Assembly: GCF_054482525.1 (NCBI RefSeq)
Contig: NZ_JBTHVG010000003.1
Direction: 5' to 3' (one strand)
Source of the DNA: a plasmid
DNA: 64,000 bases
Shown in pieces: positions 17,734 to 61,689 of this stretch (position 1 is the stretch's first letter; each line of letters opens with the position of its first letter). The notes under the pieces were generated by a model. It made no database searches, was not told the origin of the DNA, and saw only the letters and a list, made by a program, of their open reading frames with translations. Position numbers and translations under genes: made by a program.

Positions 17734-17744
17734 AAAGTTACTTT
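17734..17744. promoter_or_regulatory. AAAGT(A/T)ACTTT palindrome copy
   Basis: ggAAAAGTTACTTTTGcg; between DsbC-like stop and next gene start. Confidence 0.5.
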
Positions 17745-18487
17745 TGCGCAGCGCCCATTTGGGTCACCAGGTTTTCCGGGCTCAGCCACCCCGTAAATAA
17801 CTGCGGTTTGCCGCTTAGTGTCACCATGGTAGGAGTACCTTGCAGCGGGATTGTTGAGGCCACCTGGAAATGCGATTTGATAATGTTTAAGCAAGCCTCA
17901 TCAGGACGTCCTTCCGGGATAGTTGAAACCGGATTCATCGCTGCATCCAGAGCTTCGTTTGGCTTTGCTGAACACCAGATTTTGGCCATGTTCCCGGCTA
18001 CTACCGAGTTCAGTCCTGCACGTGGGAATGCAAGAAACTTAATCGAAATACCGGCATCAAGATAAGACTTCAGATCATGATGCAGTTTTTGGCAGTATCC
18101 ACAGGTTATATCGGTAAAGATAGCAAGCCGGTATTTTTCGTTTGGTGATTTGTAGTCGATGGATTTTGTTTTGGATGCGAATTCCCGGACGCCCATTAAA
18201 ATGGCCTGCTCAGTGGTGTTTACCACATCTTTACCTTTCACGTGGAATAAGCTTCCGGTAAAAATGTAATCTCCGTCTTTGCTCACGTAACTTACCCCCT
18301 CCCTGGAAATCACCGTAAAAATATCTTTTACTGGCGAGGGTTCGACGTGCTCGATTGAAAGCCCAATGGCTTTGAGCTTATCCCGGGCTGCATCTGGCAG
18401 TACCATTGTATTAACCGGCTCGGCATTCATCGTGAAGGCGGTACTTAATGAAAGAAGTAATACCGATGCCTTAATAATTTTTTTCAT
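17738..18487 (-). CDS. DsbC-like periplasmic thiol:disulfide interchange protein
   Basis: Signal peptide plus CGYC active site in ...FTDITCGYCQKLH... Confidence 0.75.
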   Translation of the reverse strand: MKKIIKASVLLLSLSTAFTMNAEPVNTMVLPDAARDKLKAIGLSIEHVEPSPVKDIFTVISREGVSYVSKDGDYIFTGSLFHVKGKDVVNTTEQAILMGVREFASKTKSIDYKSPNEKYRLAIFTDITCGYCQKLHHDLKSYLDAGISIKFLAFPRAGLNSVVAGNMAKIWCSAKPNEALDAAMNPVSTIPEGRPDEACLNIIKSHFQVASTIPLQGTPTMVTLSGKPQLFTGWLSPENLVTQMGAAQK

Positions 18488-18634
18488 TTATGCTCCTTGA
18501 ATCGAGCACTAATATTATCACGCCCAAAAATTCCAGAATTTTGCTTAAACGCTTAAATCAACGGGTAAAGCCGAAAGAAAGTCGATAGATATATGGGAGA
18601 ATAGATAAAACGTAGATTCAGTGGAGAAATCGTT

Positions 18635-19174
18635 GTGTTTACACCACCAGCAGATGATGTGAAACCTATTCCCGTTCCTGATGAGATTTACACTCAGTGC
18701 ATTACGGATGCCGCCCGCTTCTTCGGAATTGATGCCGAACTGGTTTTTACGTTGTTTGACAATGAAGGCGGTAAGGTTGGTACTTTCAGCAGGAATACTA
18801 ACGGCACTTATGATATTGGCCCGATGCAGATCAACTCATCCAATCTGCCTGAAATAAAAAAGCATTTCCCGACTGTAACGTGGCGGGTTCTGGCTTACGA
18901 TGCTTGCGCTAGTTTCTGGGTTGGAACATGGTGGCTCTACAGAAAAATTGTTGATCGCAAGGGCAATGTGTTTGAAGGGATTGCAGATTACAACAGCAAA
19001 ACCCCAAAGGTACGTGCAAAGTACATATTTAACTTCATGGTAAAGTACAATCGCCGGATCCAGCAGCGTAACGGGATGGGTGAGCTTTATCAATGGACCC
19101 AACAACCTCCTCGATACAATGGCCATATAGCTAAAAATGTCCCGGAGCAAAACCCGACTCCTGTTGTTAAATAA
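18635..19174 (+). CDS. Lytic transglycosylase (SLT domain), conjugation-associated peptidoglycan hydrolase
   Basis: ...YDIGPMQINS... lytic transglycosylase signature. Confidence 0.7.
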   Translation: MFTPPADDVKPIPVPDEIYTQCITDAARFFGIDAELVFTLFDNEGGKVGTFSRNTNGTYDIGPMQINSSNLPEIKKHFPTVTWRVLAYDACASFWVGTWWLYRKIVDRKGNVFEGIADYNSKTPKVRAKYIFNFMVKYNRRIQQRNGMGELYQWTQQPPRYNGHIAKNVPEQNPTPVVK

Positions 19175-19256
19175 ATTCAACCTGATATTACAGAAGATCA
19201 TCGAGTAGCTTGGGTACCCCCCCGCAAAAAATTCGCATAGACTCAGGGGTAATAAA

Positions 19257-19823
19257 TTGTCTTTTTCTGCAAGAAATATATTTAAGATTCTCTCTTCTTT
19301 CTTGATGCAGAAAAGCCCTCTTCATGAAGAAGTATGTGTTCCTGAAGAAACAACAGCTGGTTTATGGGGCCCTCTCCCTGATTCGCATGTCGTGCTTTTC
19401 TTAGATTTCGATGGGGTTTGTCACAGGTGCAAAAATGAAACCTTTGAGCGAATGCCATTGGTGGAAAAATTACTGGATAAATGCCCTTCCATGGTGATTG
19501 TCATCTCCAGTTCGTGGCGTGAATGTGCCAGTATAACTTACCTGAAATCTCTTTTCCGGCTACCTTATAGAGACAAAGTCATAGGTGCTACCGATTCGGT
19601 ATATTTAAAACCTAATCAGTCAGGTGTGCGGGCTGCTGAGTGTGAGGACTTTGTATTTTCACATCGAGTTAAAGCATTTATCTGCCTTGATGACGACGAA
19701 TCATTATTCCCGGTCGGTTATCCACATTTGCAAAAAACCAATTATTACACCGGCCTCACCGAATCTGATCTTGCAGCTCTTAACACCAGGTATCATCTGC
19801 TTATGAAACGTTGGGCTTCCTGA
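19257..19823 (+). CDS. Hypothetical protein, possibly HAD-like hydrolase
   Basis: ...LFLDFDGV... DxDG-type motif only; weak. Confidence 0.35.
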   Translation: MSFSARNIFKILSSFLMQKSPLHEEVCVPEETTAGLWGPLPDSHVVLFLDFDGVCHRCKNETFERMPLVEKLLDKCPSMVIVISSSWRECASITYLKSLFRLPYRDKVIGATDSVYLKPNQSGVRAAECEDFVFSHRVKAFICLDDDESLFPVGYPHLQKTNYYTGLTESDLAALNTRYHLLMKRWAS

Positions 19824-19826
19824 ATT

Positions 19827-19837
19827 AAAGTAACTTT
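19827..19837. promoter_or_regulatory. AAAGT(A/T)ACTTT palindrome copy
   Basis: ttAAAGTAACTTTTACgg; convergent intergenic. Confidence 0.5.
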
Positions 19838-19930
19838 TACGGAGAGCATGCCCGCATTATCAGTTCTATGCTTCTCCATTTCTGCCCCGGGTCAAAGCAT
19901 TGCACAGTTGGAAGAAAACATGCCGGTCTC

Positions 19931-25354: not shown

Positions 25355-25362
25355 GTCAGACC

Positions 25363-26778
25363 TCAGTTACGTGTGCCACGAATACTTTCAGTGAAAGCCT
25401 TCCGTTGCAGGCGACGGTTATCCCAGGTTGAAATGACGTCCGAGCTGGTACCGACCTGGCTGTGCGATAGCTCATAGGCGGCTTTAACCTGTTTTGAGAG
25501 ATTGTCTGTTAATCGGTTGAGATCATCCCTTTTACCCGACAGCGACTCACTCGGTATGCTCATGGTTGAAATTTTGGCCTCAACCTGGCGCAACATGTTG
25601 ATTACGAGGCTCGTCGCAGCAATAGTGCTTATGTCCTGAATGTATGCGTACCCTTCCGGTGCTTCGAATGTTTGCAAAGAGTCGATAATGGTCGGGATGC
25701 CGATATAGGAGATAATGCGTAATTCATCATCTGAAACACGAACGTCGTTGATGATTTTTTTCTGTACGTTTAAAAGAAGATCAGAAATGGTATCCTTCAA
25801 TCCCTTAAAACCACCGTCATTAACTTCTGACATGACAAGGCACTGAGCCTTTCGTGGGGATGATGGATCTGGTGCCGGAGAACACTTGAGCATTTTAATT
25901 GATCCGCCAGCTGGTGGCCCCATGATGTAATCCGTGACAGTCATGGTAGACGGGCGGACTTCCATTCCCGCTTTTTCGCCTTTGCTATCCCAGTTGATAA
26001 TGACAGTACCCACGAGAGACATAAGTTGTTCTGCCAATTTATAACCGGATAACTCCGTTACCCCTCCGATGTTCATTGTTCCCTTATCAATATCCATGAA
26101 CGACATATAGAAGAGGTTACCACTGAATTTTTCAGCGAACTCTTCGGGATCCTTTGCTTTAACCTGAGAAGTGACAGCTTCAGGTGACTTTGTCATCGAT
26201 GAGCCAAAATCAGGAATGAGACCATTAATCGATCCCAGAATTGAGGCTGGTCCAGAGCTAACTGAGTTAGCAAACTGGCTTGGCGTACCCACGTTTTCAG
26301 AAAGGAAAGAGTAAGTTGCATTGCATGAATCTTTCGCAAATTTATTTAGCGCTTGCAGTTTGTTTTGGATGTCATTAATCGTTGCAGCACAGTCAGCACA
26401 AATAGCTGAAACAGCAACGTTAAAAGCATAGATAGCCGCACCCTGGGCAATACCACGGGCCACCTGCACAAGCTGGTCCCCGTTGATCATGCTGAAGGAC
26501 CCAAGAAAAACGTCAATACCATTACAACCGACAGAAGCTTTTGGAAACGACATGGAAACAAGGTTGGTATTAACGTTTGTTGTTCGGTAAGACATTGACC
26601 CGCCAACTATGCCTGTACGGGTTGCTGTGGAAAAGGTGGCCGGGCTGGTAGACGTCATCATGCCATTGAAAATGTTACGCATTGCGTTGTCTGCATTTGC
26701 AGTCGGGGCTAAAATTGCAGCACAAACAGAAAGAGACAAAAGTAACTTTTTGAAGTTGAAAACGGCATTACTGCGCAT
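25363..26778 (-). CDS. F-type TraH-like pilus assembly protein
   Basis: Signal peptide (MRSNAVFNFKKLLLSLSVCAAILAPTANA); size and position match TraH; start reassigned from 26841. Confidence 0.6.
   Translation of the reverse strand: MRSNAVFNFKKLLLSLSVCAAILAPTANADNAMRNIFNGMMTSTSPATFSTATRTGIVGGSMSYRTTNVNTNLVSMSFPKASVGCNGIDVFLGSFSMINGDQLVQVARGIAQGAAIYAFNVAVSAICADCAATINDIQNKLQALNKFAKDSCNATYSFLSENVGTPSQFANSVSSGPASILGSINGLIPDFGSSMTKSPEAVTSQVKAKDPEEFAEKFSGNLFYMSFMDIDKGTMNIGGVTELSGYKLAEQLMSLVGTVIINWDSKGEKAGMEVRPSTMTVTDYIMGPPAGGSIKMLKCSPAPDPSSPRKAQCLVMSEVNDGGFKGLKDTISDLLLNVQKKIINDVRVSDDELRIISYIGIPTIIDSLQTFEAPEGYAYIQDISTIAATSLVINMLRQVEAKISTMSIPSESLSGKRDDLNRLTDNLSKQVKAAYELSHSQVGTSSDVISTWDNRRLQRKAFTESIRGTRN
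26739..26749. promoter_or_regulatory. AAAGT(A/T)ACTTT palindrome copy
   Basis: caAAAGTAACTTTTTGaa; at the TraH-like / TraF-like junction. Confidence 0.45.
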
Positions 26779-28407: not shown

Positions 28408-28920
28408 TTAATCTAATTCTTCTTGAGAATACCTCTCTATGGCTGAAGCAGTTGAAGATAATCTGCAACGTGGACAATAAGCATCATTTGTCACTGGCAC
28501 AATGTATGGGCGTTTACATTTTTCGCAGGCACCTAGTTCTTCAATTTCTTTCATAGAAGTAAGGATTTCTATTATTTTATTAACTTCCGGTGCGCATACA
28601 AAGTATCCCAGATTATGAAGGACACTCATTATTCGGTTGAAGTCAATTTGCCGAAAACTCGCTTCCGGATTTATTGGATCAAAACCAAAATAGTTAACTG
28701 CGACATCAATAACAGCAGAAAAAGCTCGGCGGTTATCTGTGCGTTTGCTCCAGCCCCGGATACCTTTTTTGAGTTTTGTTTTTGCACCAGGCTCAAAATC
28801 GATATTTTCAGCAACATGATTACCGTACAAAATTCGTATTGTATTTTTATTTGCCCCAAGCGACATAGTCCTTGCTGCTCGCAATAGAGCATTAGCTTTT
28901 GTTTGATCGACCTTTGCCAT
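28408..28920 (-). CDS. Zinc-ribbon protein, hypothetical (possible transfer regulator)
   Basis: C-terminal CEKC...CPRC; sits between the mating-pair operon and the candidate oriT. Confidence 0.45.
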   Translation of the reverse strand: MAKVDQTKANALLRAARTMSLGANKNTIRILYGNHVAENIDFEPGAKTKLKKGIRGWSKRTDNRRAFSAVIDVAVNYFGFDPINPEASFRQIDFNRIMSVLHNLGYFVCAPEVNKIIEILTSMKEIEELGACEKCKRPYIVPVTNDAYCPRCRLSSTASAIERYSQEELD

Positions 28921-28921: not shown

Positions 28922-29722
28922 TTAATAATCCTTTAACATAACTTTATTTGTTAAAGTGTTGAACACATCCTGACGGTGACTGGTGAACATAGTGTCATAA
29001 CGTAATAGTTCCATCAAATCATCACTAACTTTTCCTAACCGGATGTCAGCAGACAATTCATAAGCCCAGGCAAAAACTTTCGTTTTAAGTGAAACACTCT
29101 CTTCAATATGCCCTTGTGAGAAAGCAATTGTACGTGGGAAAAGAACGACATCGTTAATTGTTTTTAACGATGAATAACCAATGTCTTTAATAGCATCAGC
29201 TGTAGTTGGTTTTAAACCAAAGAAAACACTTACAAACTCTGGTGCGAGCATTGAGATAAAGAACACCTGCATAAAGTAGTCATTCTGTATATCAACACAT
29301 TTAGAACGCAACTCATGAATCTTCTTGGGATTATAGATATCCACTGTACCATTCAGAAAAGTCACTTTTTCACCGGCATCGTAAATACCATAGTCAATAT
29401 CATTTGTATCATATTCACGAATTACATTGGAATCACCGTCCAAGACCGCAGAAAAAAACCTCTCCCATGTAATTTCCTTTCCGAGTGTACGCGGAACCAA
29501 AAAACTACCTGGACGTGTTTCCACTTCAAAAGCTAAATCAGCGGCTGTACTAAATCCTTTCCCAAATAGGCGACGCTGGAGAAGAGGAGTCCCAGTTTGA
29601 TATGCAGAAGATCCATGCACAGGCAATAACATTAAAAATGCACGGTAACTACGAATAAGCGAAATCTCAGTGCGGAAAAGTTTACCGAGTAAGCTACGAG
29701 TTAAATTATCAGATTCTGACAT
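28922..29722 (-). CDS. Hypothetical protein (possible transfer regulator), first gene of the minus-strand transfer operon
   Basis: 266-aa ORF; palindrome copy 76 bp upstream of its start. Confidence 0.45.
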   Translation of the reverse strand: MSESDNLTRSLLGKLFRTEISLIRSYRAFLMLLPVHGSSAYQTGTPLLQRRLFGKGFSTAADLAFEVETRPGSFLVPRTLGKEITWERFFSAVLDGDSNVIREYDTNDIDYGIYDAGEKVTFLNGTVDIYNPKKIHELRSKCVDIQNDYFMQVFFISMLAPEFVSVFFGLKPTTADAIKDIGYSSLKTINDVVLFPRTIAFSQGHIEESVSLKTKVFAWAYELSADIRLGKVSDDLMELLRYDTMFTSHRQDVFNTLTNKVMLKDY

Positions 29723-29798: not shown

Positions 29799-29809
29799 AA
29801 AGTAACTTT
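29799..29809. promoter_or_regulatory. AAAGT(A/T)ACTTT palindrome copy
   Basis: gAAAAGTAACTTTTAGta; 76 bp upstream of gene 28922..29722. Confidence 0.5.
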
Positions 29810-30049
29810 TAGTATTTTCTTAAGGCTTGAATAAGCCTTAAATCTATCCCTTCAACCACACCGCTTACTTGTAACACTTTTTAACCAAACTGACCAGAAT
29901 TTTATCAAAATTTCTTCGCATGCTAACGAAATGTGAAGCGATTAAAAAAAAACCTAAATCCAGCCCCTCCCAACGTTGGATTAGAATAACGACGTCTTTC
30001 ACTGACCGTCATAAACTGACATTTTTACTTTTCATCAACCTCATGCTTA

Positions 30050-30283: not shown

Positions 30284-30294
30284 AAAGTAACTTT
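30284..30294. promoter_or_regulatory. AAAGT(A/T)ACTTT palindrome copy
   Basis: cAAAAGTAACTTTAGAgg; upstream of the relaxase operon, next to the tandem repeats. Confidence 0.5.
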
Positions 30295-31703: not shown

Positions 31704-34700
31704 ATGATGATGAATTTCAGGGCGCTGTATTTATGTATTAAACGGATTTTGGGGATATTCTCATCTCAGGAGAATGATGCAACCTCTGTAATGATTGAGG
31801 ATATATCAAGCCTCTCTCCTTTTGCGCAGATTCTAGGAGATCAGAAGTACACTGTTCCTGATCATCCAAATCCAGAAGTCCTGAAATTCATCGAGTATCC
31901 AACTCGTCCGACGGGCATACAGACATTTAATGAACAGTCAATCCTGTCTCTGTATCGGGAAAAGCTGCACTCAATTTCAATGATGTTAGCTATCAGCGAT
32001 AGCGACATCAGGGACGATGCATATACATTTACTAATTTAGTATTAAAGCCCTTGGTTGAATATGTTCGCTGGATACATCTTTTGCCAGCTTCCGAAAATC
32101 ATCATCATAATGGTATTGGTGGGTTACTTTCTCACAGCCTGGAAGTGGCCATACTCTCTTTAAAAAATGCGCATCACTCAGAACTGAGACCAATCGGATA
32201 TCAAGATGAAGAAGTAGTCCGTAGAAAAGTATATCTCTATGCTGCGTTTATCTGTGGTTTAGTCCATGATGCCGGAAAGGTTTACGATCTCGATATTGTA
32301 AGCCTGAATTTAGCTAGTCCGATCATTTGGACGCCAAGCTCACAAAGTCTTCTTGACTGGGCACGTGAAAATGACGTGGTTGAATACGAAATCCACTGGC
32401 GAAAGCGTATTCATAATCAACATAATATCTGGTCCAGCGTTTTCCTTGAGCGAATCCTAAACCCGGTATGTCTTGCATTTTTGGATCGGGTAAATAAAGA
32501 ACGTGTTTATTCAAAAATGATCACCGCCCTAAACGTTTATACTGATGGGAATGACTTTTTGTCTAAATGCGTGAGGACCGCTGATTTCTATTCTACTGGT
32601 ACAGACCTTAATGTTTTACGTGACCCTATCATGGGTCTGCGTTCTAATGATGCAGCAGCAAGGGCCATTAGTACCATCAAGCACAACTTTACCAGTATCA
32701 ATATCAACAATTACAATGCTAAGCCTATGCACATCATTATCGTAAATGGTGAGGTATACCTTAACGAGAACGCATTCCTTGATTTTGTTCTCAATGATTT
32801 CGAATTACATAAATATAACTTCCCTCAGGGAGAGGCTGGTAAGACGGTATTGGTAGAATCCCTAGTTCAACGTGGTTACGTCGAGCCCTATGATGATGAG
32901 CGTGTCGTTCACTACTTCATTCCGGGTATCTATTCGGAAAACGAAATATCAAACATCTTTAGAAATGGGATAGGGAAACTAGAATTCTATAACCTTCTTA
33001 AGCTAAGGTGGATTGGTTTAATCTTTGATTCCTATAAAATCCCTGACTCAGTGCCGGGTCTTTTTAGCGTTAATGCCAATAAAGACTTTATTTACATTGA
33101 CGAGCAAAAAACAGTTACTGAATACAGAAGACCAGTGCCCGGTCGGGACGCTATAACTAAAATTACTGATACTGTTGAGACGGCTGTTCTTAAGGTTAAT
33201 GATTTAGGCCGCTCCACTGCCTCTATTGATGTTGATATACATTCTAAGAAAAATGAAGGCTCATCCGACGATTTTGAGAAGAAAGCCGAAAGTGATAATG
33301 AAATTGATAATGACACGCAGATAGTTAAATCTGAGGGTGAGGAAGCAGCTGATCCTGTCATTCCTGATATAGAAGAAAGTGAAGATGAATCGGCAAAGGA
33401 CACGGAATCCCATGTCCTGGTCAACCAACTTCATGAACTCCTTTTAAGCGCTCCACTTTCCAATGACTATATAGTGTGTGTAGATGCTGTCCCCTACCTC
33501 AACATAGATGCCACTATGGCATTGCTGCCGGGATTAGATGAAAAAGCATTTAGTGAAGAGCCCTATTTCCAACTGACATTCAGAGAAGGCTCTCTCGATG
33601 GAATGTGGATAGTAAGGGACATTGACGATCTGCGTTTAGTCCAGCTCGGCGATAACTGCGCCGGGTTCCAGCTCACCTATCATGAGCCAAGAAGGCCAAC
33701 AACTTTAAAGTCACTTTTCAATACTTCTATGTATCAGGCATTAGTGATTAATGATGAGTCTTCTGTTGAAAACTCTGCCCCACGTCCAAAGCAAACGCTT
33801 GAGCTGCCTCCCCCACGTGTAAATGCAGTCGAAGAACATTCTGGCGACGTGGAATATCATGGAACCGATAGTGCATCCGCGACTGGTCCGCTGAAAACTG
33901 AGGCTGTGGAATATGAACATTATCAACATCTTTTTGAGGAAGAAGATGAAGAGCATGAGATCATTGATTATACCGATTTCACACAGCTTAGTGTTTCTCG
34001 GCCAGAAGTCGGTAGTTGTGCAACAAGCTCTTCGGTCCATAATGAAAAGCTTCTCCCCGAGCCGTCAGAATTACCAGAACTTAACCGAGAACAGAACGCT
34101 GATCCCCAGGGTACGATTGAACGCTCTATGGATGTTTCTGTAGGACAAGAAAACTCAGAACCAGATACTGAGGGTAACTGCCCACCACCAGCTGAAGTTG
34201 TGTATTCCCAGACCGAAGCAGCCGCAACCAGTGTGATGGCAAGTGAAGAGCCCGCCTTACCTCCTGTACTTGAAGAATCAAATGGAGAGCATGCGCCCAC
34301 AGACGCTAAGGGGCATCATCTTTCGCCAGCACTGGCCAGACTGTTCGCCCCAACAGCACCGGTAGAAAAACAAAATCCCAAGCGCAACCGGAATAAATCA
34401 TCGGACAAAGCAGAAGTACAAAAACCAGCATCACCTGTTTCTGGTCACAATCTGAACAGTAAAGTCTTTGCAACTACTGAATCAGACCAAAATGGTGAAT
34501 TCTCGCTTATAAGCGAAGGTGACGTTACAGAGCTTGAATTTGTAGAAATTGCGTCAGTACTGCATCAAATTCTGTCCAAAATGGAGGTGGCGTTTAAAAG
34601 AAAGCGCAAAAACAGATTTATGGTAAGTACTCCTAATACTCTCTATCTGACCCAATCTTGCGTGGAAAAATTTGGGTCGCAGTTAGAGGCTCAAGATCTT

Positions 34701-34856: not shown

Positions 34857-36940
34857 TGTCAGATTCGAAGAGGACTAACCTCCATGCACAAGAGAATTTT
34901 TATCGGCCTATTCTTGAGTATCGTAGTGCCTCAATACTTTTGATTTGTTCGGTTTCTATGCTTTATATGGGACTTTCTTCAGACGGACTGGACATCGCCC
35001 CAATAGTTCTGTTCACCTCAATATTGCTTTTTTTGCTGTGCCTTTATCGTTGCAAAACAGCAGCGCCATTCTTGATGGCTCATTGGCGTGTATTCAAGCG
35101 ACATTTCATGTTCGTTAGTCTTGATTCACTGCGTGTAATTAACAAAAGTAACTTTTTCTCCAATGAGCGAAAGTATCGTCAACTGGTTCAGGATTATCAA
35201 AATAAAAATAAGGATATACCCGAGCGAAAGTCCTATTTTTGTGATGGGTTTGAGTGGGGCCCGGAACATGCGGATCGGGCATATCAAATAGCTAACCTCT
35301 CCAGTGATAAACGTGAGATCGAGTTGCCATTCGTCTTCAACCCAATTAAGAGACATTTTGACGCAATGGCTCGTAAGATGGGCGGCAGCAATGCAATTTT
35401 TGCTGTGGAACGTAGGGAACCCATATTTGTAACTGAAGACAATTGGTTTGGTCATACTCTGATAACCGGAAACGTGGGTACCGGGAAAACGGTGCTACAG
35501 CGTTTACTAAGCATTAGCATGCTTCATCTTGGTCATGTTGTTGTTGTCATAGATCCAAAGAACGATGCAGAGTGGCGAGAATCTCTAATGGAAGAGGCTA
35601 AGACCCTCGGTCTTCCTTTCTATAAATTTCATCCTGGCCAGCCAGCATCTTCGGTCTGTATTGATGTCTGCAACACCTATACTAATGTTTCTGACCTAAC
35701 ATCTCGTCTTTTGAGCTTGGTGACAGTTCCCGGTGAGGTTAACCCATTCGTTCAGTATGCCAAGGCTCTCGTTTCCAATGTGATTTCCGGGCTTTCTTAC
35801 ATAGAGAAAAAGCCTTCTATTTATCTGATTCACAAGAACATGAAAAGCCACATGTCTATTGTGAATCTTACAGTCAAGGTAATGGAGTCATGTTACGCGA
35901 GATATTATGGTTACGATGTCTGGACCGAAAAAGTTAAGTACGTCGCTAACGAAACCTTGCCGGTACGTTTCAAGCGTCTCGCTGAATGGTTTACGGCTCA
36001 TTTCATGAATTACGAGGGGTCCGAACAAATAGACTGGTTAGATACTGTTTCCCAGCTTATTGATTACTCAATGTCCGACCCAGAGCATATGGCTAAAATG
36101 ACCGCAGGTATTATGCCTGTTTTCGATATGCTCATTGAAAAACCTTTAAATGAGCTTTTATCTCCTAACCCGAACTCAGTATCATCAAGAGAAATTGTAA
36201 CAAGCGAAGGGATGTTCAGCACTGGCGGGGTGCTATACATTTCGCTTGATGGCCTTTCAAACCCCGATACAGCAGCTGCTATTTCTCAATTAATAATGTC
36301 AGATCTGACCTCCTGTGCCGGTAGTCGCTACAACGCTCAGGATGGTGATATGTCAGCTAATTCCAGGATAAGTATTTTTGTTGATGAGGCACACTCAGCC
36401 ATTAACAACCCTATGATTAACCTTCTGGCGCAGGGTCGTGCAGCGAAAATTGCACTGTTTATTTGCACCCAAACCATCTCCGACTTTATTGCTGCGGCAA
36501 GTGTTGAAACTGCCAATCGAATTACGGGGCTCTGCAACAATTATATAAGCTTGCGAGTCAACGATACTCCTACTCAGACGCTTGTTGTAGAGAACTTTGG
36601 TAAGAGTGCGATAAGCACAAATATGGTCACTTATACGACCGGTTCAGAAACATCTTTGCCGCATAATAACTTCTCAGGTTCAATCTCAGAAAGAAAGCAG
36701 ACAACTTTAGAAGAGAGTATTCCAAAGGATCTCTTGGGTCAGGTCCCTATGTTTCACATAGTTGCCAGGCTTCAAGATGGCAGGAAGGTTGTAGGCCAAA
36801 TCCCTATTGCTGTTGCTGAGAAACAAATGAAGCCAAACACAACTCTGTCGGAAATGCTTTTCAAGAAGGCCGGAAAAGTTACTTTGCGTCAAAATCTCGA
36901 TATCAAAAATCTTAATAAATTTCTAAGGAAGTTTCATTGA
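34856..36940 (+). CDS. Type IV coupling protein (TraD/TraG/VirD4 family ATPase)
   Basis: N-terminal TM; Walker A GNVGTGKT; Walker B FVDEAH. Confidence 0.8.
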   Translation: MSDSKRTNLHAQENFYRPILEYRSASILLICSVSMLYMGLSSDGLDIAPIVLFTSILLFLLCLYRCKTAAPFLMAHWRVFKRHFMFVSLDSLRVINKSNFFSNERKYRQLVQDYQNKNKDIPERKSYFCDGFEWGPEHADRAYQIANLSSDKREIELPFVFNPIKRHFDAMARKMGGSNAIFAVERREPIFVTEDNWFGHTLITGNVGTGKTVLQRLLSISMLHLGHVVVVIDPKNDAEWRESLMEEAKTLGLPFYKFHPGQPASSVCIDVCNTYTNVSDLTSRLLSLVTVPGEVNPFVQYAKALVSNVISGLSYIEKKPSIYLIHKNMKSHMSIVNLTVKVMESCYARYYGYDVWTEKVKYVANETLPVRFKRLAEWFTAHFMNYEGSEQIDWLDTVSQLIDYSMSDPEHMAKMTAGIMPVFDMLIEKPLNELLSPNPNSVSSREIVTSEGMFSTGGVLYISLDGLSNPDTAAAISQLIMSDLTSCAGSRYNAQDGDMSANSRISIFVDEAHSAINNPMINLLAQGRAAKIALFICTQTISDFIAAASVETANRITGLCNNYISLRVNDTPTQTLVVENFGKSAISTNMVTYTTGSETSLPHNNFSGSISERKQTTLEESIPKDLLGQVPMFHIVARLQDGRKVVGQIPIAVAEKQMKPNTTLSEMLFKKAGKVTLRQNLDIKNLNKFLRKFH
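35145..35155. promoter_or_regulatory. AAAGT(A/T)ACTTT palindrome copy (intragenic)
   Basis: cAAAAGTAACTTTTTCtc; inside the coupling protein gene. Confidence 0.4.
36875..36885. promoter_or_regulatory. AAAGT(A/T)ACTTT palindrome copy (intragenic)
   Basis: gAAAAGTTACTTTGCGtc; 3' end of the coupling protein gene. Confidence 0.4.
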
Positions 36941-41776: not shown

Positions 41777-41787
41777 AAAGTTACTTT
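41777..41787. promoter_or_regulatory. AAAGT(A/T)ACTTT palindrome copy
   Basis: aGAAAGTTACTTTTCCgt; upstream of gene 41329..41613. Confidence 0.5.
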
Positions 41788-45550: not shown

Positions 45551-46735
45551 TCATGACTGTCCCTTGTTCATCTTATCAGCATGCTTACGCAGGTACTCTT
45601 TCAGGTCAGCATGAGCGTTGATGATATCGTTCATTTCATCATTGGTCAGAACAAGCGTGTAAGTATCAGTACTGACAGATTCACCTTCTTTAAGCTTGGC
45701 TTCTTCAGCAATACGTTCAAAAATCGGGATCGCGGTGTCTGCAATGACGGTCACAGTCTTTTTGTTCAGAACGCTGGACATGGAAGGTGCTTTACCTGCC
45801 GGGTTCTGTTTAGGAGCGCTGTCCTTTGGAGCTGGAGCCGGTTCCTGTACCGGTGGCGTATCCAGCGTCTCCGTATTGCTTTCATCGTTCAGTTGATCCG
45901 GTACCGGGGTGTTATCGGTAGTATCATCTGCCGGTTGCTCAGCACCGATGTTTTCCGGAGTCTGCGGATCTGCCATGCGCTCTTCTACCTTGGCAGCTTT
46001 GACGAATTTCAGCGTGTTTTTCGTCGCCTTGCCATAGATGGAGATCGCTTTGTTGATGTTATCTACCGCATCCTCACCGCTGTACATATACTCGTCCAGT
46101 GCAACGTACATGCTCACCTGATCGCTCACAAGCATGGTCTGTAGTTCAGAAGGCAGGTCCAGTACGCGAACCATCTGGCGAAGATGCTGCTCTGATTTAC
46201 CACGTTTTTTTGCCAGTTCCGCAAAGGTCTTAGGCTCTTCTTTATCTTCAACCAGACGCTTAATTGAAAGCGCTTCAGCTACGACAGACAGCGCCAGGTT
46301 GGAGTTGCCGGTCAGGGTGAAGAGTTCTGCTTTTGAAGCGCTACCGCGAAACTCTTCGCAGCGAATACGAGTAATGCGTTCACGCCCTTCTGCTTCCAGC
46401 TGGCGGTTTGCAATAGCGATGGAACGGATACGGCAAGCCCCCTGACGCAGTACAGGTACGCCATTAACCATCTGAACAACGATAGGCGTCACGCTGAACG
46501 GGTCTTCCATGTAGGCATCGGCCAGGCTGTTCAGGTGTTCCACAACGTGAGGCATTGAATAGTAGAGCTCGCCCATACCGGCCGTGCGGGTGTTAAAGCC
46601 TTCCTGCTCTACAACAACCGAAGGGTCAATGATAAGGCCGTTGCCTTTACGGGCACCGTTACCAGTGCGTTCCAGGTAACCACGAAGGCTGATTTCGTTG
46701 CTGTTGTTTTTTACTTCAGTTTCGATTGCGGACAT
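45551..46735 (-). CDS. ParB/KorB-like protein (ParB N-terminal domain, putative HTH, acidic Pro-rich linker, C-terminal domain)
   Basis: N-terminal ...GNGLIIDPSVVVEQEGFNTRT...; ...HLRQMVRVLDLPSELQ... HTH-like; two palindrome copies upstream. Confidence 0.55.
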   Translation of the reverse strand: MSAIETEVKNNSNEISLRGYLERTGNGARKGNGLIIDPSVVVEQEGFNTRTAGMGELYYSMPHVVEHLNSLADAYMEDPFSVTPIVVQMVNGVPVLRQGACRIRSIAIANRQLEAEGRERITRIRCEEFRGSASKAELFTLTGNSNLALSVVAEALSIKRLVEDKEEPKTFAELAKKRGKSEQHLRQMVRVLDLPSELQTMLVSDQVSMYVALDEYMYSGEDAVDNINKAISIYGKATKNTLKFVKAAKVEERMADPQTPENIGAEQPADDTTDNTPVPDQLNDESNTETLDTPPVQEPAPAPKDSAPKQNPAGKAPSMSSVLNKKTVTVIADTAIPIFERIAEEAKLKEGESVSTDTYTLVLTNDEMNDIINAHADLKEYLRKHADKMNKGQS

Positions 46736-46825: not shown

Positions 46826-46836
46826 AAAGTAACTTT
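46826..46836. promoter_or_regulatory. AAAGT(A/T)ACTTT palindrome copy
   Basis: aAAAAGTAACTTTTTTta; 91 bp upstream of the ParB-like gene. Confidence 0.5.
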
Positions 46837-46951: not shown

Positions 46952-46962
46952 AAAGTTACTTT
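46952..46962. promoter_or_regulatory. AAAGT(A/T)ACTTT palindrome copy
   Basis: gAAAAGTTACTTTTCCgg; second copy upstream of the ParB-like gene. Confidence 0.5.
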
Positions 46963-50545: not shown

Positions 50546-51884
50546 CATAAGCGCTAACTTAAGGGTTGTGGTATTACGCCTGATATGATTTAACGTGCCG
50601 ATGAATTACTCTCACGATAACTGGTCAGCAATTCTGGCCCATATTGGTAAGCCCGAAGAACTGGATACTTCGGCACGTAATGCCGGGGCTCTAACCCGCC
50701 GCCGCGAAATTCGTGATGCTGCAACTCTGCTACGTCTGGGGCTGGCTTACGGCCCCGGGGGGATGTCATTACGTGAAGTCACTGCATGGGCTCAGCTCCA
50801 TGACGTTGCAACATTATCTGACGTGGCTCTCCTGAAGCGGCTGCGGAATGCCGCCGACTGGTTTGGCATACTTGCCGCACAAACACTTGCTGTACGCGCC
50901 GCAGTTACGGGTTGTACAAGCGGAAAGAGATTGCGTCTTGTCGATGGAACAGCAATCAGTGCGCCCGGGGGCGGCAGCGCTGAATGGCGACTACATATGG
51001 GATATGATCCTCATACCTGTCAGTTCACTGATTTTGAGCTAACCGACAGCAGAGACGCTGAACGGCTGGACCGATTTGCGCAAACGGCAGACGAGATACG
51101 CATTGCTGACCGGGGATTCGGTTCGCGTCCCGAATGTATCCGCTCACTTGCTTTTGGAGAAGCTGATTATATCGTCCGGGTTCACTGGCGAGGATTGCGC
51201 TGGTTAACTGCAGAAGGAATGCGCTTTGACATGATGGGTTTTCTGCGCGGGCTGGATTGCGGTAAGAACGGTGAAACCACTGTAATGATAGGCAATTCAG
51301 GTAATAAAAAAGCCGGAGCTCCCTTTCCGGCACGTCTCATTGCCGTATCACTTCCTCCCGAAAAAGCATTAATCAGTAAAACCCGACTGCTCAGCGAGAA
51401 TCGTCGAAAAGGACGAGTAGTTCAGGCGGAAACGCTGGAAGCAGCGGGCCATGTGCTATTGCTAACATCATTACCGGAAGATGAATATTCAGCAGAGCAA
51501 GTGGCTGATTGTTACCGTCTGCGATGGCAAATTGAACTGGCTTTTAAGCGGCTCAAAAGTTTGCTGCACCTGGATGCTTTGCGTGCAAAGGAACCTGAAC
51601 TCGCGAAAGCGTGGATATTTGCTAATCTACTCGCCGCATTTTTAATTGACGACATAATCCAGCCATCGCTGGATTTCCCCCCCAGAAGTGCCGGATCCGA
51701 AAAGAAGAACTAACTCGTTGTGGAGAATAACAAAAATGGTCATCTGGAGCTTACAGGTGGCCATTCGTGGGACAGTATCCCTGACAGCCTACAAAACGCA
51801 ATTGAAGAACGCGAGGCATCGTCTTAACGAGGCACCGAGGCGTCGCATTCTTCAGATGGTTCAACCCTTAAGTTAGCGCTTATG
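50546..51884 (+). mobile_element. IS186 (IS4 family) with perfect 23-bp terminal IRs and 11-bp target site duplication GGGGTTGCCCC
   Basis: IRs cataagcgctaacttaagggttg / caacccttaagttagcgcttatg; TSD at 50535-50545 and 51885-51895; boundaries +/-1 bp. Confidence 0.9.
50595..51713 (+). CDS. IS186 transposase (IS4 family DDE)
   Basis: ...MNYSHDNWSAILAHIGKPEELD... and ...DCYRLRWQIELAFKRLKS... signature. Confidence 0.9.
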   Translation: MPMNYSHDNWSAILAHIGKPEELDTSARNAGALTRRREIRDAATLLRLGLAYGPGGMSLREVTAWAQLHDVATLSDVALLKRLRNAADWFGILAAQTLAVRAAVTGCTSGKRLRLVDGTAISAPGGGSAEWRLHMGYDPHTCQFTDFELTDSRDAERLDRFAQTADEIRIADRGFGSRPECIRSLAFGEADYIVRVHWRGLRWLTAEGMRFDMMGFLRGLDCGKNGETTVMIGNSGNKKAGAPFPARLIAVSLPPEKALISKTRLLSENRRKGRVVQAETLEAAGHVLLLTSLPEDEYSAEQVADCYRLRWQIELAFKRLKSLLHLDALRAKEPELAKAWIFANLLAAFLIDDIIQPSLDFPPRSAGSEKKN

Positions 51885-56740: not shown

Positions 56741-56751
56741 AAAGTTACTTT
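56741..56751. promoter_or_regulatory. AAAGT(A/T)ACTTT palindrome copy
   Basis: gtGAAAGTTACTTTCCtg; upstream of gene 56397..56600. Confidence 0.5.
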
Positions 56752-57644: not shown

Positions 57645-57648
57645 AGGC

Positions 57649-58475: not shown

Positions 58476-58796
58476 TTATGCTTCCTGACACCGTGTGAAC
58501 GCAATCTTCGTCTGGATGCGTTCATAGATGGAAAACTGCCTTTCAATGGAACCGGCATTAGACAGTAATTCATGAAGCTCAGCAGAGTCTGTATCGGGAA
58601 CGATAGCTACAGAAACTCCATATCTCCGTCCAATTTTGATTAGGTGCGCAAGCTGTTCTTTTTCGGATTCTGTGAGCATTGCCAGATCTCTTCCGGACAC
58701 CTGCTCTATAAACGAACCAAGGTTTTTGGGAAAAAAGGGTTCGGCATCAGAGTTATGTGCTGGGCGCGTCTGCGGCTTATCGAAGCTATTGGGCAT
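58476..58796 (-). CDS. Hypothetical protein
   Basis: 106-aa ORF. Confidence 0.35.
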   Translation of the reverse strand: MPNSFDKPQTRPAHNSDAEPFFPKNLGSFIEQVSGRDLAMLTESEKEQLAHLIKIGRRYGVSVAIVPDTDSAELHELLSNAGSIERQFSIYERIQTKIAFTRCQEA

Positions 58797-58947
58797 GAAT
58801 AGAACCTATACAGTTAGAGAACTGGAGAATGGATAAAGACTCTATGAAAATCAGTTGTGCTACACTCGAATGCTAATCAAGCTTTATGATGGCTTTAGTA
58901 GGGATGGCCGTCAACTTAAACCGATAAGAAGGGAGCCATTTATCGTT

Positions 58948-58958
58948 AAAGTAACTTT
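58948..58958. promoter_or_regulatory. AAAGT(A/T)ACTTT palindrome copy
   Basis: tTAAAGTAACTTTCCCgg; intergenic. Confidence 0.5.
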
Positions 58959-58975
58959 CCCGGATGATGCTCTTT

Positions 58976-59203
58976 TTACGAAATAAGTTTCTCACACTCC
59001 TGTATAAGAGTCGCCCTGGAACGAGATCGACTGGCTTTGCTTAATGAAGAGCGTAGTTGATGTTCATCAACCCCATCAGCGATAAACTGACCGATTTTTG
59101 TTTCAAGCCGCTGCATTGCCTCGTAAAGCTTGGCATCCGCATTATTTTTAAGAAACCTCAGTATATAATCAGCAATAATTTGGACGGGAGTGAACTTATA
59201 CAT
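58976..59203 (-). CDS. Small hypothetical protein
   Basis: 75-aa ORF. Confidence 0.3.
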   Translation of the reverse strand: MYKFTPVQIIADYILRFLKNNADAKLYEAMQRLETKIGQFIADGVDEHQLRSSLSKASRSRSRATLIQECEKLIS

Positions 59204-59430
59204 TATGTATCCTTAAGACGTTGTGTTAAATGATTCAAAAAAATTTATAACCAGACGTAAATTATTATACATAAGTAAGCACTTTAGCTAACAAGCTGGA
59301 GGAGTGAATTTCGGTTAGCAACTATATTTTAGAAGCTGATTGCTGAATAGACAAAGCCCGGCTTACCGGGCATTCATTTAATTAGATGCTAGAAATCTGA
59401 CCCGTCGTCTGACTTTTATTCCAGGCAGAG

Positions 59431-60042
59431 TTAGGAACTAATAATGATGGCCTGGTCAGTTTGAGGAAGCCGGTTTCCTCTGATAAATGCAGGGTGGTTT
59501 AAACGAGAAGAAGAAATGGTCATCGCCAGAAATGTCTCTTCACGCGAACGCAGAAATTCCCCCCATGAATAGGTTTCCCATACGTCGTGAGAAAGGTCGG
59601 ATTCCTTTATGTACCGGGATTGCATTGTTGGCTCAAAATCGACAGGGGCTAAACTGTCATAGGATGGATGAACACGGTACCCCAATCCCTCCTCCGTCTG
59701 ATGGTATGCATGTGCCAAAAGGACATCGTGGGAGACCAGGTCATAGTCGTTGTCCTGAACGAGCGTTTTTACGGTATGACTAATTTCCCCAAAGCCGTCT
59801 ATTTCCCAGAGCGTTATCATTGTGAACTCAGCTAAAGTTCGTGGGCTCTTTACCAGAAAGCCATTTAATGCTCGTCGCCCCTTCAGCATGCCAACGTGGT
59901 AGGTCTTGTTGGGATAGGGTTTCATTGCCACCAGCGAATCAGCTTTAAGCTCAAGTGACAATTCAGGGACAGACACGGACATGAGAGTACACTTGTTTTT
60001 CATATGGTGAAGAATACGTGGCACAAGATGCAGATACATCAT
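59431..60042 (-). CDS. Hypothetical protein
   Basis: 203-aa ORF; true start may be internal. Confidence 0.4.
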   Translation of the reverse strand: MMYLHLVPRILHHMKNKCTLMSVSVPELSLELKADSLVAMKPYPNKTYHVGMLKGRRALNGFLVKSPRTLAEFTMITLWEIDGFGEISHTVKTLVQDNDYDLVSHDVLLAHAYHQTEEGLGYRVHPSYDSLAPVDFEPTMQSRYIKESDLSHDVWETYSWGEFLRSREETFLAMTISSSRLNHPAFIRGNRLPQTDQAIIISS

Positions 60043-60153
60043 TTTCTCCTTTTATGGATATAACTGGCAGATCCTCAGCAGCATCAAAATAGTTAATAGA
60101 CTTTTTTAATTGGTTAACCACTGTTGATTGACTTGTTTTATGTCTCTGAGAAA

Positions 60154-60720
60154 TTATTCGTTTTGTTTCTGTTCGTTATACTGCTCAAACCAGAAGACGA
60201 CCGGTTTTACTACAATATGAAGCAAACCAAAACGTTCTGCGGTACGGAAATTCACGCTATATGCGCGAGCCCGTTCAACCTGTTTGGTAATTTCATTTCT
60301 CATTCCTTCAACACTAAAAGCTCCTTTAAAAAGGTTGCAGGGAGCGCATGATGGAAATAAGTTTTCTATTGCATGCAGTTCAGGGTGCATAACCTTACCC
60401 GTACTTCGGGCAACATGAGTTACGCCGCTGCCGACCGGGGCTCTCACCAGTTCAAAGTCGCGTCGAACAGGCTCAACATGATCGGCATGCCACCCTTTTT
60501 CAGGAAGCTTGCAACCACAATAGGCACAACGCCCCCCAAATTTCATTCGCAGCTCAGCTCGCTGTATTTTAGAGATCTTATTTTTAGGTTTTGAGAACCT
60601 ACCATCAGGTGATTCCGCTTTGGATAACTTTGCTGAGGGCTCAGGTAACTCAACTAAATTCCCGTTGATATTTATCACCTTGACCATATCATTTTCCGCC
60701 TTTACTAATCTCACGGGCAC
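60154..60720 (-). CDS. HNH endonuclease (zinc-finger-containing HNH motif)
   Basis: ...GGRCAYCGCKLPEKGWHADHVEPV...CAPCN... HNH core. Confidence 0.65.
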   Translation of the reverse strand: MPVRLVKAENDMVKVININGNLVELPEPSAKLSKAESPDGRFSKPKNKISKIQRAELRMKFGGRCAYCGCKLPEKGWHADHVEPVRRDFELVRAPVGSGVTHVARSTGKVMHPELHAIENLFPSCAPCNLFKGAFSVEGMRNEITKQVERARAYSVNFRTAERFGLLHIVVKPVVFWFEQYNEQKQNE

Positions 60721-60747
60721 AGGAGCTGGCTTAAGTAACCGCTGAAG

Positions 60748-60936
60748 TTAACAGCCACTGACTGCCTCTACCCAGACCTTCTGTTTATACTCAATAGGCC
60801 ACCCCTCTTTATCTGCCCGGATGACGCAATCATTTACCGTGGTGCGTGACCGGATACGAACATCAAGCGGAAGCGAATCGTTATCCACACGAGCCTGTGC
60901 CTCATTTAAAATGCGTAAAAACATCTCTTTGGTCAT
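60748..60936 (-). CDS. Small hypothetical protein
   Basis: 62-aa ORF. Confidence 0.3.
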   Translation of the reverse strand: MTKEMFLRILNEAQARVDNDSLPLDVRIRSRTTVNDCVIRADKEGWPIEYKQKVWVEAVSGC

Positions 60937-61244
60937 TCAGATACCCCCTCAACTTTGCGAATTTTGATCAGATGAGGGCGATTCAGTTTACAAAGTTGTT
61001 CTGTCGCTTCATCAATCGAATTGAACCGATGAGCCTCTTCGATATTTAAAGTCCAGTATTTCGCTTTCCCTTCTCCCAGATCGGACTCAAAATAATTTCG
61101 CTTTACATCCATTTTTTTAGGCCTGCCATTTATCTTGACGACATTATGTCTGTCATCAAAAAGAAATTCGTCCCCCTCAAAAGTGATTAATACAAATGGC
61201 CCCTCAGGCTTGGAAGTCCGGGGACTTCCCATTTTCAAAGTCAT
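60933..61244 (-). CDS. Hypothetical protein
   Basis: 103-aa ORF. Confidence 0.35.
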   Translation of the reverse strand: MTLKMGSPRTSKPEGPFVLITFEGDEFLFDDRHNVVKINGRPKKMDVKRNYFESDLGEGKAKYWTLNIEEAHRFNSIDEATEQLCKLNRPHLIKIRKVEGVSE

Positions 61245-61306
61245 ACTTCAGCCTCTCGATAGAACTCATGAAACCTCAAATTAAAATGGACTCACACCAC
61301 ACTGAT

Positions 61307-61546
61307 TCAGTATTCCTCCTGAACCCCATTAGGCTCTGTTGTGATTTCATATTTAATACCGCCAGGTGCTCCCACAGCGTCCGCGACCGACTCACACAGC
61401 AGCGAGAGATCGTTGAGGGTCATTGGGTGTTCAATGTCCAGCGTGAAGAGTTTCCCGGCTTGCTTGGCGGCTGTCTTGTCAGCATGTTCAGCATTAAAAA
61501 GGTATACGGTGTGTTTTTCCTGAGCGGGGGTATTTTGATTTTGCAT
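61307..61546 (-). CDS. Small conserved protein, paralog B (shares motif with 56118..56342)
   Basis: See paralog A; palindrome copy 133 bp upstream. Confidence 0.5.
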   Translation of the reverse strand: MQNQNTPAQEKHTVYLFNAEHADKTAAKQAGKLFTLDIEHPMTLNDLSLLCESVADAVGAPGGIKYEITTEPNGVQEEY

Positions 61547-61678
61547 TGATGATCCTTTTGTTTAGTTCCCCGATTCCGGGGGTGAGTGAATTAATTTAAA
61601 TTTATATTTGTCTGGTTTAATTAGAACGTTTCCAGGCTATGCGTAAACAGGTAATGCAAAGGCTGTATCAACAGGATT

Positions 61679-61689
61679 AAAGTTACTTT
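61679..61689. promoter_or_regulatory. AAAGT(A/T)ACTTT palindrome copy
   Basis: tTAAAGTTACTTTTCTgg; 133 bp upstream of paralog B, downstream of the PAPS-reductase-like gene. Confidence 0.5.

Follow-up and report, generated by a model that had tools for sequence, protein, structure and literature searches.

What reads an 11-bp palindrome that recurs all along the backbone of a conjugative plasmid? The question is raised by a window of 64,000 nucleotides (the whole stretch of DNA that was analysed; RefSeq assembly GCF_054482525.1, contig NZ_JBTHVG010000003.1), which comprises the Tra1 and the adjoining region of an IncHI2 plasmid and in which the palindrome AAAGTWACTTT occurs again and again. 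The palindrome is a backbone-wide, selected cis element that is found family-wide in IncHI. On balance, as judged from sequence and structural models, its extended form aAAAGTnACTTTt is likely to be the operator or loading site of an orphan protein with a ParB/KorB fold encoded by the IncHI plasmids themselves, with the ParB-like protein here called PBL1 as the likeliest one.

The palindrome and its distribution

In an exact scan of the window, AAAGTWACTTT occurs 14 times, while dinucleotide shuffles of the same sequence contain on average 0.06 copies and never more than one. Thirteen of the copies are those counted between positions 17,734 and 61,689 in an earlier, sequence-only reading, and the fourteenth, at 15269, lies outside that range. 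When any central base is allowed, the sites at 16833 (G), 29358 (C) and 33707 (C) are added, which brings the number of copies of AAAGTNACTTT in the window to 17. Every one of the 17 occurrences of AAGT.ACTT extends to the full 11-mer, and there is a single variant with an arm mismatch (62950), where about 1.5 one-mismatch sites are expected. Positions 1-15268 contain no copy by exact scan, so that the resistance island is empty, as had been claimed.

A logo of 92 sites pooled from five lineages (IncHI2, IncHI1, IncHI1B, a Yersinia intermedia contig and a Leclercia-type contig) gives the consensus aAAAGTnACTTTt, which is the 11-mer with one extra base on each side. The arms are invariant at 10/10 positions, the central base is A or T in 85/92 sites, the outer position is A or T in 66% of the cases, and nothing beyond this outer base is informative. 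The right flank (T)CCNGG, which had been noticed at five copies, does not generalize, since a strict CCNGG is present within 3 bp at just 7/92 sites; as only the directly adjacent base is informative, CCNGG was rejected as a part of the motif.

The same element is dispersed over whole replicons. The reference IncHI2 plasmid p14EC029b (NZ_CP024143.1; IncHI2A, MOBH, MPF-F), which was joined from six pieces (L002 and L006 below are pieces of it), carries 50 exact copies where block shuffles predict 0.45, an excess of about 110-fold, as well as 30 one-mismatch copies where 10.9 are expected, and none of the exact copies falls in its resistance region at 113-171 kb. The IncHI1B plasmid pIncHIB (NZ_CP036336.1) has 79 copies and none in its three accessory blocks. 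There are 13 copies in a 45-kb stretch of IncHI1, 7 in 21 kb of the Y. intermedia contig and 5 in 21 kb of the Leclercia-type contig, but none in the 40 kb of an IncC plasmid that were scanned (pNDM10505, positions 6469-47044, L009). As a positive control, the enumeration of palindromes in these 40 kb recovers blind the core TTTCACATGTGAAA of the IncC partition site parS, as the sole enriched palindrome and with 7 copies. On p14EC029b the enumeration finds no other dispersed palindrome that might be assigned to the paralogues PBL2 or PBL3 (see below), the remaining counts of about 11 being due to copies of insertion sequences (IS). The motif hence stands far above the background frequency, with 50 and 79 copies against 0.45 expected and none in IncC, when whole replicons and controls are scanned as the sequence-only reading had proposed.

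When 100,044 species genomes were scanned for pairs of copies 90-120 bp apart, the matches listed came mostly from unrelated genomes, and among these matches only L033 and L139 are IncHI1B-type plasmids. The unrelated pairs listed are about as many as chance gives in 298 Gb, or belong to tandem arrays of the genomes in question. Such arrays, with a period of 21 bp and one AAAGTNACTTT per unit, are present in an Acidobacteria metagenome-assembled genome (MAG; L050 590-758) and at two further loci of unrelated bacteria (L129 254-464; L131 2329-2518), and in a Bacillota MAG the copies are paired at many loci with a distance of exactly 118 bp; neither pattern is connected to IncHI.

Sites, genes and selection on the DNA

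Positional conservation, which had been suggested as a check, is borne out by 10 IncHI2 sites that have a match at the homologous position in IncHI1. Across these 10 pairs the arms do not vary at all, whereas identity in the 60-bp flanks is only 17-78%. Four of the ten pairs are intragenic (trhH 5' end, trhR and twice traD), and for these the effect of protein coding can be separated from that of the DNA: among codons for the same amino acid, 13/16 are identical within the motif versus 53/134 in the flanks (Fisher p = 0.0016), and in the three motif codons that differ, the change affects the free centre or lies beyond the 11-mer. From frozen synonymous codons together with invariant arms follows that the constraint acts on the DNA sequence itself, and the palindrome is very probably a protein-binding site under selection.

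The sites are unevenly placed with respect to genes. In the window, 11/17 site centres are intergenic, where 18% is expected (p = 3e-5). An annotation-free count, in which genes are replaced by open reading frames (ORFs) that start with ATG and code for at least 100 amino acids, puts 23/47 sites of IncHI2 (p = 3e-5) and 48/79 sites of IncHI1B (p = 9e-14) outside such ORFs against 22% expected, so that the sites are about 3-fold enriched outside ORFs. The description of the copies as mostly promoter-proximal fits 10/17 window sites, which precede a start codon by 26-222 bp (two of the ten while still within the 3' end of the gene before it), and does not fit the rest. Another four fall well within genes (trhH 5' end, trhR, mobH and traD). 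Two window sites are situated about 40 bp upstream of predicted -35 boxes, and promoter-like matches are in general not above those in shuffled sequence.

Some promoter regions are marked by copies in several lineages. Judged by position, and with promoters that are predicted, there are copies upstream of trhA, trhR, mobI/traH, parM/Z and, in five lineages, the PBL1 gene, and in the IncHI1B lineages also upstream of the gene for the related protein PBL2. Upstream of the pilin gene trhA, IncHI1B has four copies within 330 bp (pIncHIB 77421-77752), and a lineage related to it has five (L139 2915-3385). The divergent trhR/mobI region, which contains oriT and at whose edge the window copy at 29799 sits, is flanked by copies on both sides in all lineages, and at the place upstream of mobI that is equivalent to window position 30284, IncHI1B has two. 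In pIncHIB, the 5' end of traH/trhH contains two copies, at 214141 and 214158, whose starts are separated by just 17 bp (AAAGTAACTTTttcatgAAAGTTACTTT).

Copies of the palindrome in the window, with IncHI1 counterparts as positions of the IncHI1 locus L007, and genes of the three ParB-like (PBL) proteins
Feature	Position	Strand	Context
AAAGTAACTTT	15269..15279	.	between umuC stop and 3' end of DsbA-family gene
AAAGTGACTTT, G centre	16833..16843	.	flanked by convergent hypotheticals
AAAGTTACTTT	17734..17744	.	overlaps stop of thioredoxin-fold gene; 26 bp upstream of start 17713(-)
AAAGTAACTTT	19827..19837	.	flanked by convergent HAD-domain and HNH genes
AAAGTAACTTT	26739..26749	.	trhH 5' end, trhF/trhH junction; L007 6113
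AAAGTCACTTT, C centre	29358..29368	.	within trhR candidate; L007 8751
AAAGTAACTTT	29799..29809	.	about 80 bp upstream of trhR candidate start 29722(-); L007 9191
AAAGTAACTTT	30284..30294	.	about 190 bp upstream of mobI/traH (H operon); L007 9676
AAAGTCACTTT, C centre	33707..33717	.	within mobH relaxase gene
AAAGTAACTTT	35145..35155	.	within traD coupling-protein gene; L007 14412; synonymous positions frozen
AAAGTTACTTT	36875..36885	.	traD 3' end, 60 bp upstream of next start; L007 16142
AAAGTTACTTT	41777..41787	.	169 bp upstream of start 41613(-); L007 20831 at equal distance, flanks only 28% identical
AAAGTAACTTT	46826..46836	.	96 bp upstream of PBL1; L007 25247
AAAGTTACTTT	46952..46962	.	222 bp upstream of PBL1; L007 25365
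AAAGTTACTTT	56741..56751	.	146 bp upstream of small gene start 56600(-)
AAAGTAACTTT	58948..58958	.	157 bp upstream of start 58796(-); about 39 bp upstream of predicted -35 hexamer
AAAGTTACTTT	61679..61689	.	138 bp upstream of start 61546(-); copy in equivalent intergenic gap, L007 38235
PBL1, orphan ParB/KorB-fold protein, 394 aa	45551..46735	-	best candidate binder
PBL2	p14EC029b 248553-249713 = L006 28626-29789	-	near Dam methylase and RepHI1A
PBL3	p14EC029b 252924-253979 = L006 33000-34055	-	divergent neighbour of RepHI1A gene

The surroundings of these sites are those of a common IncHI2 backbone. Between 26 and 46 kb the window is 100% identical to hundreds of IncHI2 plasmids, and its first 12 kb (1-12 kb) correspond to the sul1/ble/IS26-oqxAB-IS26 block of p14EC029b. 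In the annotation of p14EC029b the matching stretch begins with umuDC, DsbA- and thioredoxin-type genes, trhG/trhH/trhF and two hypotheticals at the position of trhR/trhY, and continues with mobI, the MobH relaxase, the TraD coupling protein and a long series of small hypotheticals on the minus strand. At 50.2-51.9 kb the window has an IS4-family transposase ORF (50595..51713, plus strand) in an insertion of 1.35 kb, adjoining a hok-type toxin gene and IS150; p14EC029b is without this insertion.

Candidate readers of the palindrome

The ParB-like protein encoded at 45551..46735 had been put forward as the first candidate to bind the sites, and the analysis supports it by fold and by the copies at its own promoter, while it also turns up two paralogues, which are candidates as well. 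In the layout of PBL1, a diverged N-terminal ParB-type domain (with FNTR, RQGxCRxR and GN motifs) is followed by a ParB helix-turn-helix (HTH) at residues 149-209, which a disordered linker joins to a helical domain at the C-terminus. The HTH is found by Pfam HTH_ParB (residues 149-209, E = 1.5e-5), which also matches 52/71 members of the family, and phmmer matches it to the HTH of Caulobacter ParB (6s6h, 6t1f). An AlphaFold2 model based on an alignment of 71 sequences has a confidence score (pLDDT, predicted local distance difference test) of 83 overall and above 95 over residues 20-250. Its best Foldseek matches in the Protein Data Bank (PDB) are KorB of RK2 (8qa9), CTP-bound ParB (7bnr, 6t1f) and Noc (7ol9), all with probability 1.0; 216-234 columns are aligned to 8qa9, 7bnr/6t1f/1vz0 and 7ol9, and an N-terminal ParB/sulfiredoxin-like domain precedes the HTH. 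PHROG 1033, 'ParB-like partition protein', covers residues 24-255. The invariant residues include N48-x-R50 (in FNTR), G99 and R102 (in RQGxCRxR) and N144 (in GN..L).

The gene for PBL1 is accompanied by the palindrome wherever it was compared: two copies lie upstream of it in IncHI2, two in IncHI1, six within 900 bp in IncHI1B, two in Yersinia and one in the Leclercia-type contig, with an identity of the protein that falls across these lineages from 65% to 35%, the latter for pIncHIB. The recognition helix S-x-x-H-[LIV]-R-[QK] is kept in PBL1 of all lineages, whereas the corresponding helix of PBL2 differs between IncHI2 and IncHI1B.

IncHI2 and IncHI1 have three paralogous orphan ParB-like genes and IncHI1B has two, and the proteins are mutually about 26-32% identical. 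None of PBL1, PBL2 and PBL3 adjoins a ParA gene, and the neighbours of PBL1 are small genes without family matches. Upstream of PBL2 there is a one-mismatch variant, AAAAGTACCTTTT, 80-95 bp away and at the same place in IncHI2 (L006 about 29865-29880) and in IncHI1 (NC_016825.1, L140 6906), which may act as a weaker operator or belong to another of the paralogues. In IncHI1B-type plasmids the PBL2 gene has two exact copies upstream. From the kept recognition helix of PBL1, the variable helix of PBL2 and the presence of copies at the PBL1 promoter everywhere follows the ranking of PBL1 as the first among them. In terms of sequence and models, the reader is probably one of the PBL proteins, and PBL1 in particular is a leading but still tentative choice.

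Several observations weigh against PBL1 as a KorB-like regulator that works from these sites. Pfam ParB_N is not detected in PBL1, and the motifs GERRxRA and ENLQR are only partly kept (as GxCR and GN..L), from which follows that a CTP clamp like that of KorB is not assured. In a comparison by eye with the canonical nucleotide-binding boxes of ParB (GxxR of GERRxRA; ENLQR), PBL1 presumably carries other residues in place of Glu and the first Arg in box II, and likewise for Glu and Arg in box III. Two residues of its recognition helix differ in IncHI1B (SVTH versus SEQH) with an unchanged motif. Because there are two further paralogues, and exact copies at the PBL2 promoter in IncHI1B, PBL2 may bind the sites instead of PBL1 or together with it. 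With regard to the sites themselves, 3/17 in the window (15269, 16833 and 19827) are between convergent genes or at 3' ends, where a role at a promoter is not obvious, a copy is found in only about one third of the larger intergenic gaps of the window, and the spacing to predicted promoters is uneven. Among more distant homologues, co-variation of motif and protein is not shown by either of the two examined: L141 (36% identity) has 3 copies in 21 kb and none at its own promoter, and L142 (40% identity over a part) has no copy and no other palindrome.

In the proposed operator network, a dimer of PBL1 would read both arms of 5-6 bp through its ParB-type HTH, and the 50-80 copies on the backbone would form a single plasmid-wide regulon. 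Its sites would flank oriT (at trhR and at mobI/traH) and stand before the pilin/AC operon, before many small genes downstream of Tra1 and before the ParB-like genes themselves, with others inside or behind genes. Expression of genes for transfer and maintenance would in this way be tied to the level of PBL1, with autoregulation, as for KorB-OB in IncP and ParB-parS in IncC. On this reading PBL1, rather than its paralogues or another protein, would bind the sites, and binding would regulate transcription. As to the sign of the effect, repression is a guess, by analogy with KorB and from the two sites at the promoter of PBL1 itself, with anti-silencing or activation as the alternative. The IncHI plasmids are strongly silenced by H-NS/Hha and thermoregulated (PMC7366339), which makes anti-silencing a plausible direction.

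Arrangement near the replication gene suggests, from its sequence, that the reader of the palindrome is linked to replication control as well, because degenerate copies alternate with iterons and PBL3 adjoins the rep gene. In the IncHI1 plasmid NC_016825.1 (L140 125-820, beside a gene of the RepB family for RepHI1A) and in p14EC029b (900-2060) there is a RepHI1A iteron array with units of 43-44 bp, in which the iteron CATTCATGCAAATGCTTTT alternates with a degenerate palindrome (for example CAAAAGGCACTTTTC three times, and one exact AAAGTCACTTT). In plasmid R27, the 'partition protein' genes R0042 and R0153 are induced under all conditions that promote conjugation (PMC7366339), and R0042, given its position near repHIA, may be one of the PBL paralogues.

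Related systems and alternative readings

The sequence-only reading had compared the sites with the KorB operators of IncP plasmids, and this comparison holds for a selected, dispersed, backbone-only 6-1-6 palindrome with promoter-proximal, distal and intragenic copies, though not for a unique binder. In IncP-1 RK2 (compare PMC11790492), KorB acts on OB, a 13-bp 6-1-6 palindrome TTTAGCSGCTAAA with 12 copies at promoters, about 100-200 bp from them or far from them. The likeness to IncHI extends over the odd length with 6-1-6 arms and a degenerate centre, the perfect backbone-only copies, the copy in the regulator's own promoter, the modelled structure of PBL1 with KorB (8qa9) as its best match and, by analogy, a plausible global role in transfer and maintenance genes. 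The differences are that IncHI has 50-79 copies rather than 12 and three paralogues, that PBL1, unlike KorB, is not beside a ParA (IncC) or a KorA-like partner, and that it is only about 18% identical to KorB, with an N-terminus beyond Pfam ParB_N and altered GERRxRA/ENLQR motifs.

A second comparison is with the ParB-parS system of IncA/IncC, described in 2024, whose plasmids belong to the same MOBH/MPF-F super-family. Here, 12-14 palindromic parS sites of 14 bp with the core TTTCACATGTGAAA are scattered, mostly intergenic and a few in ORFs; several are 10-25 bp from boxes of the master activator AcaCD, directly upstream and in tra promoters. The protein that binds them is the partition ParB from operon parAB-053, which has a KorB domain, and they act as centromeres (PMC10954446). 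Common to both systems is an invariant palindromic core scattered over a conserved backbone, and one parS adjoins a 'parB-like regulator' (PMC10954446) that is a homologue of PBL1 (32% identity). They differ in that the IncHI motif is distinct, shorter and present in 4-6 times as many copies, that the PBL genes are unlinked to ParA, duplicated and diverged, and that the type Ia ParAB operon of IncHI is without a nearby copy and has an array of its own.

VirB with its site virS on the Shigella virulence plasmid and BisD of ICEclc are ParB-like CTP clamps that activate or anti-silence transcription (compare PMC10770331, PMC12409273). They resemble the IncHI case as orphan ParB-fold proteins on mobile elements, with an inverted repeat upstream of promoters and action at a distance, and differ from it by their few sites; the likeness to PBL1 rests on the shared fold. 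In Noc-NBS, MatP-matS and SlmA-SBS, one dimeric protein reads a short palindrome that recurs tens of times across a replicon or macrodomain, and Noc, a ParB paralogue, is among the fold matches of PBL1, but these systems organise or position DNA with respect to cell division and have no promoter bias, while the IncHI copies are enriched outside genes and form clusters at promoters of tra and regulator genes.

If not a PBL protein, the reader could belong to the known transfer circuit of IncHI, with the palindrome as the DNA box of the activator pair TrhR/TrhY, countered by HtdA, and hence as the cis side of that circuit. TrhR and TrhY work jointly as activators of four operons (F, H, AC and Z) and are opposed by HtdA; mutation of htdA in R27 derepresses 139/181 expressed genes, leaving mainly transposon, tet, cit, parAB and mucAB genes unaffected, and no DNA motif is given for the affected genes (PMC7366339). 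As the htdA effect spans most backbone genes and spares accessory and par genes, a backbone-wide co-regulated set exists, and its extent would suit a TrhR/TrhY box. So would copies within about 260 bp upstream of 3/4 dependent operons (AC, p14EC029b 1804; H, window 30284; Z, p14EC029b 20657), the cluster of 4-5 copies upstream of trhA in IncHI1B-type plasmids, the conserved copy about 80 bp upstream of trhR, and a possible zinc ribbon, CEKC-x16-CPRC, at the C-terminus of the TrhY candidate (window 28408-28920, minus strand), for which, however, Pfam gives neither FlhC nor another match, so that a likeness of FlhC/AcaC type is unsupported. The F operon argues against such a box: this operon depends on TrhR/TrhY and is induced by their overexpression (PMC7366339), yet upstream of trhF there is no copy at up to 2 mismatches in IncHI2 and IncHI1B and a single 2-mismatch match in IncHI1. 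Furthermore, there is no copy upstream of htdA, the R operon has one and is nevertheless reported as HtdA-independent (PMC7366339), and many copies are intragenic or at 3' ends. TrhR/TrhY have no detectable DNA-binding domain or solved relative in NCBIfam, Pfam, PHROGs and PDB sequence searches, and a short perfect dyad with a free centre fits a homodimeric HTH better than a hetero-oligomer. Reading by TrhR/TrhY is therefore unlikely. HtdA was also considered as a direct binder and is disfavoured, as it has no family match and its model is chaperone-like, which fits the reported antagonism of TrhR/TrhY at the protein level. The model of HtdA from IncHI2 (L002 22956-23408; AlphaFold2, pLDDT 85) has type III secretion class I chaperones (SycE, CesT, SicP) and YbjN as its nearest folds, with weak E-values of at least 2e-3.

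Another possibility, and quite an unlikely one as the primary function, is that the copies are dispersed parS-like or DNA-organising sites, for segregation, condensation or positioning, with effects on transcription as a by-product. The ParB fold of the candidate binder, the scattered parS of IncC that are bound by a partition ParB (PMC10954446), the copies inside genes and between convergent genes and the degenerate motif-like units between the RepHI1A iterons are all in its favour. No PBL gene adjoins ParA, however, and the plasmid already has a ParM system as well as a type Ia ParAB system with its own array of 249 bp x 10.5 that lacks the motif, while the 3-fold enrichment outside ORFs and the clusters at trhA, oriT and the PBL promoters point to transcription. 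To the favourable side we also count a near-invariant N-terminal peptide of PBL1, S16-L17-R18...E22, which resembles the ParA-stimulating LG(R/K)GL peptides of ParB. By analogy with KorB and IncC ParB, which do both, such sites are compatible with a PBL operator network. Around parAB (p14EC029b 7166-18583) there is no copy at up to 1 mismatch and one 2-mismatch match upstream of parA. The array (L002 12547-15125; 249-bp tandem repeat, 10.5 units, 71% matches) lies in unannotated 3.8 kb between trhC and parA, is free of the palindrome, and is presumably the centromere/incompatibility region of the type Ia partition system. ParB of this system, Par1, was rejected as the binder of the palindrome, since it belongs to type Ia, comes with a repeat array of its own and lacks a copy of the palindrome in its vicinity.

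Readings in which no plasmid regulator is involved are very improbable. In these, the motif would be the target of a host factor or of a plasmid methyltransferase or restriction-type enzyme, or the remnant of a small mobile repeat. Several orphan methyltransferases are indeed encoded on the plasmid (Dam-family, cytosine and 'site-specific'), and many unrelated genomes contain the motif in pairs; the number of such pairs among the matches listed is, however, about that of chance in 298 Gb or due to tandem arrays. Sites for modification or restriction are not expected to be 100-fold over-represented, biased towards intergenic DNA and conserved in position, and neither the co-resident resistance regions nor the scanned part of an IncC plasmid from the same hosts contains the motif. 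The invariance of 10/10 arm positions over 92 sites is also stricter than for the known global regulators of enterobacteria. Since the flanks of the copies share no homology, the copies are not a mobile element. The same lack of relation between flanks, together with a stem of 5 bp and a loop of 1 nucleotide that cannot fold, leaves the 'recurrent structured promoter element', offered as an alternative in the sequence-only reading, without support; an RNA or terminator structure was rejected on the same geometry, without a folding run.

The operator network of PBL proteins can be extended to a wider scheme that is unlikely in its entirety. In it, 2-3 PBL paralogues would load as clamps at 50-80 palindromes, slide or spread from there, and set the expression of the whole backbone (tra operons, oriT, leading region and replication), as the DNA-level partner of HtdA-TrhR/TrhY and of thermosilencing by H-NS/Hha, for instance as a VirB-like anti-silencer that makes conjugation temperature-dependent. 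The motif strings, with an explicit or an IUPAC centre, are in no relevant paper of the searchable literature, outside which subscription-only papers fall, and the IncHI literature on ParB, KorB and TrhR, where searchable, describes neither this regulatory layer nor binding or regulation by PBL proteins. Motif and role for the PBL proteins are thus new relative to the searchable literature, while the principle is known from IncP and IncC.

Plasmids of the IncHI1, IncHI2 and IncHI1B groups carry the multidrug resistance of typhoid as well as mcr-1, NDM and extended-spectrum beta-lactamase (ESBL) genes, and their transfer depends on temperature. Their known regulators, TrhR, TrhY, HtdA and H-NS/Hha, are without defined DNA targets, and the palindrome would supply the first mapped DNA targets for the regulatory circuit of IncHI, with 50-80 positions and a small number of candidate binders. 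Additional palindromes supplied in trans might titrate the reader and thereby disturb transfer or stability, as the mimic parS of SGI1 does to IncC. If PBL1 or one of its paralogues reads the sites, the principle of one ParB-fold protein with many palindromes, known for KorB and for IncC ParB, would extend to a third major plasmid family, and the IncHI version of it would be much denser and served by orphan, duplicated ParB-like genes.

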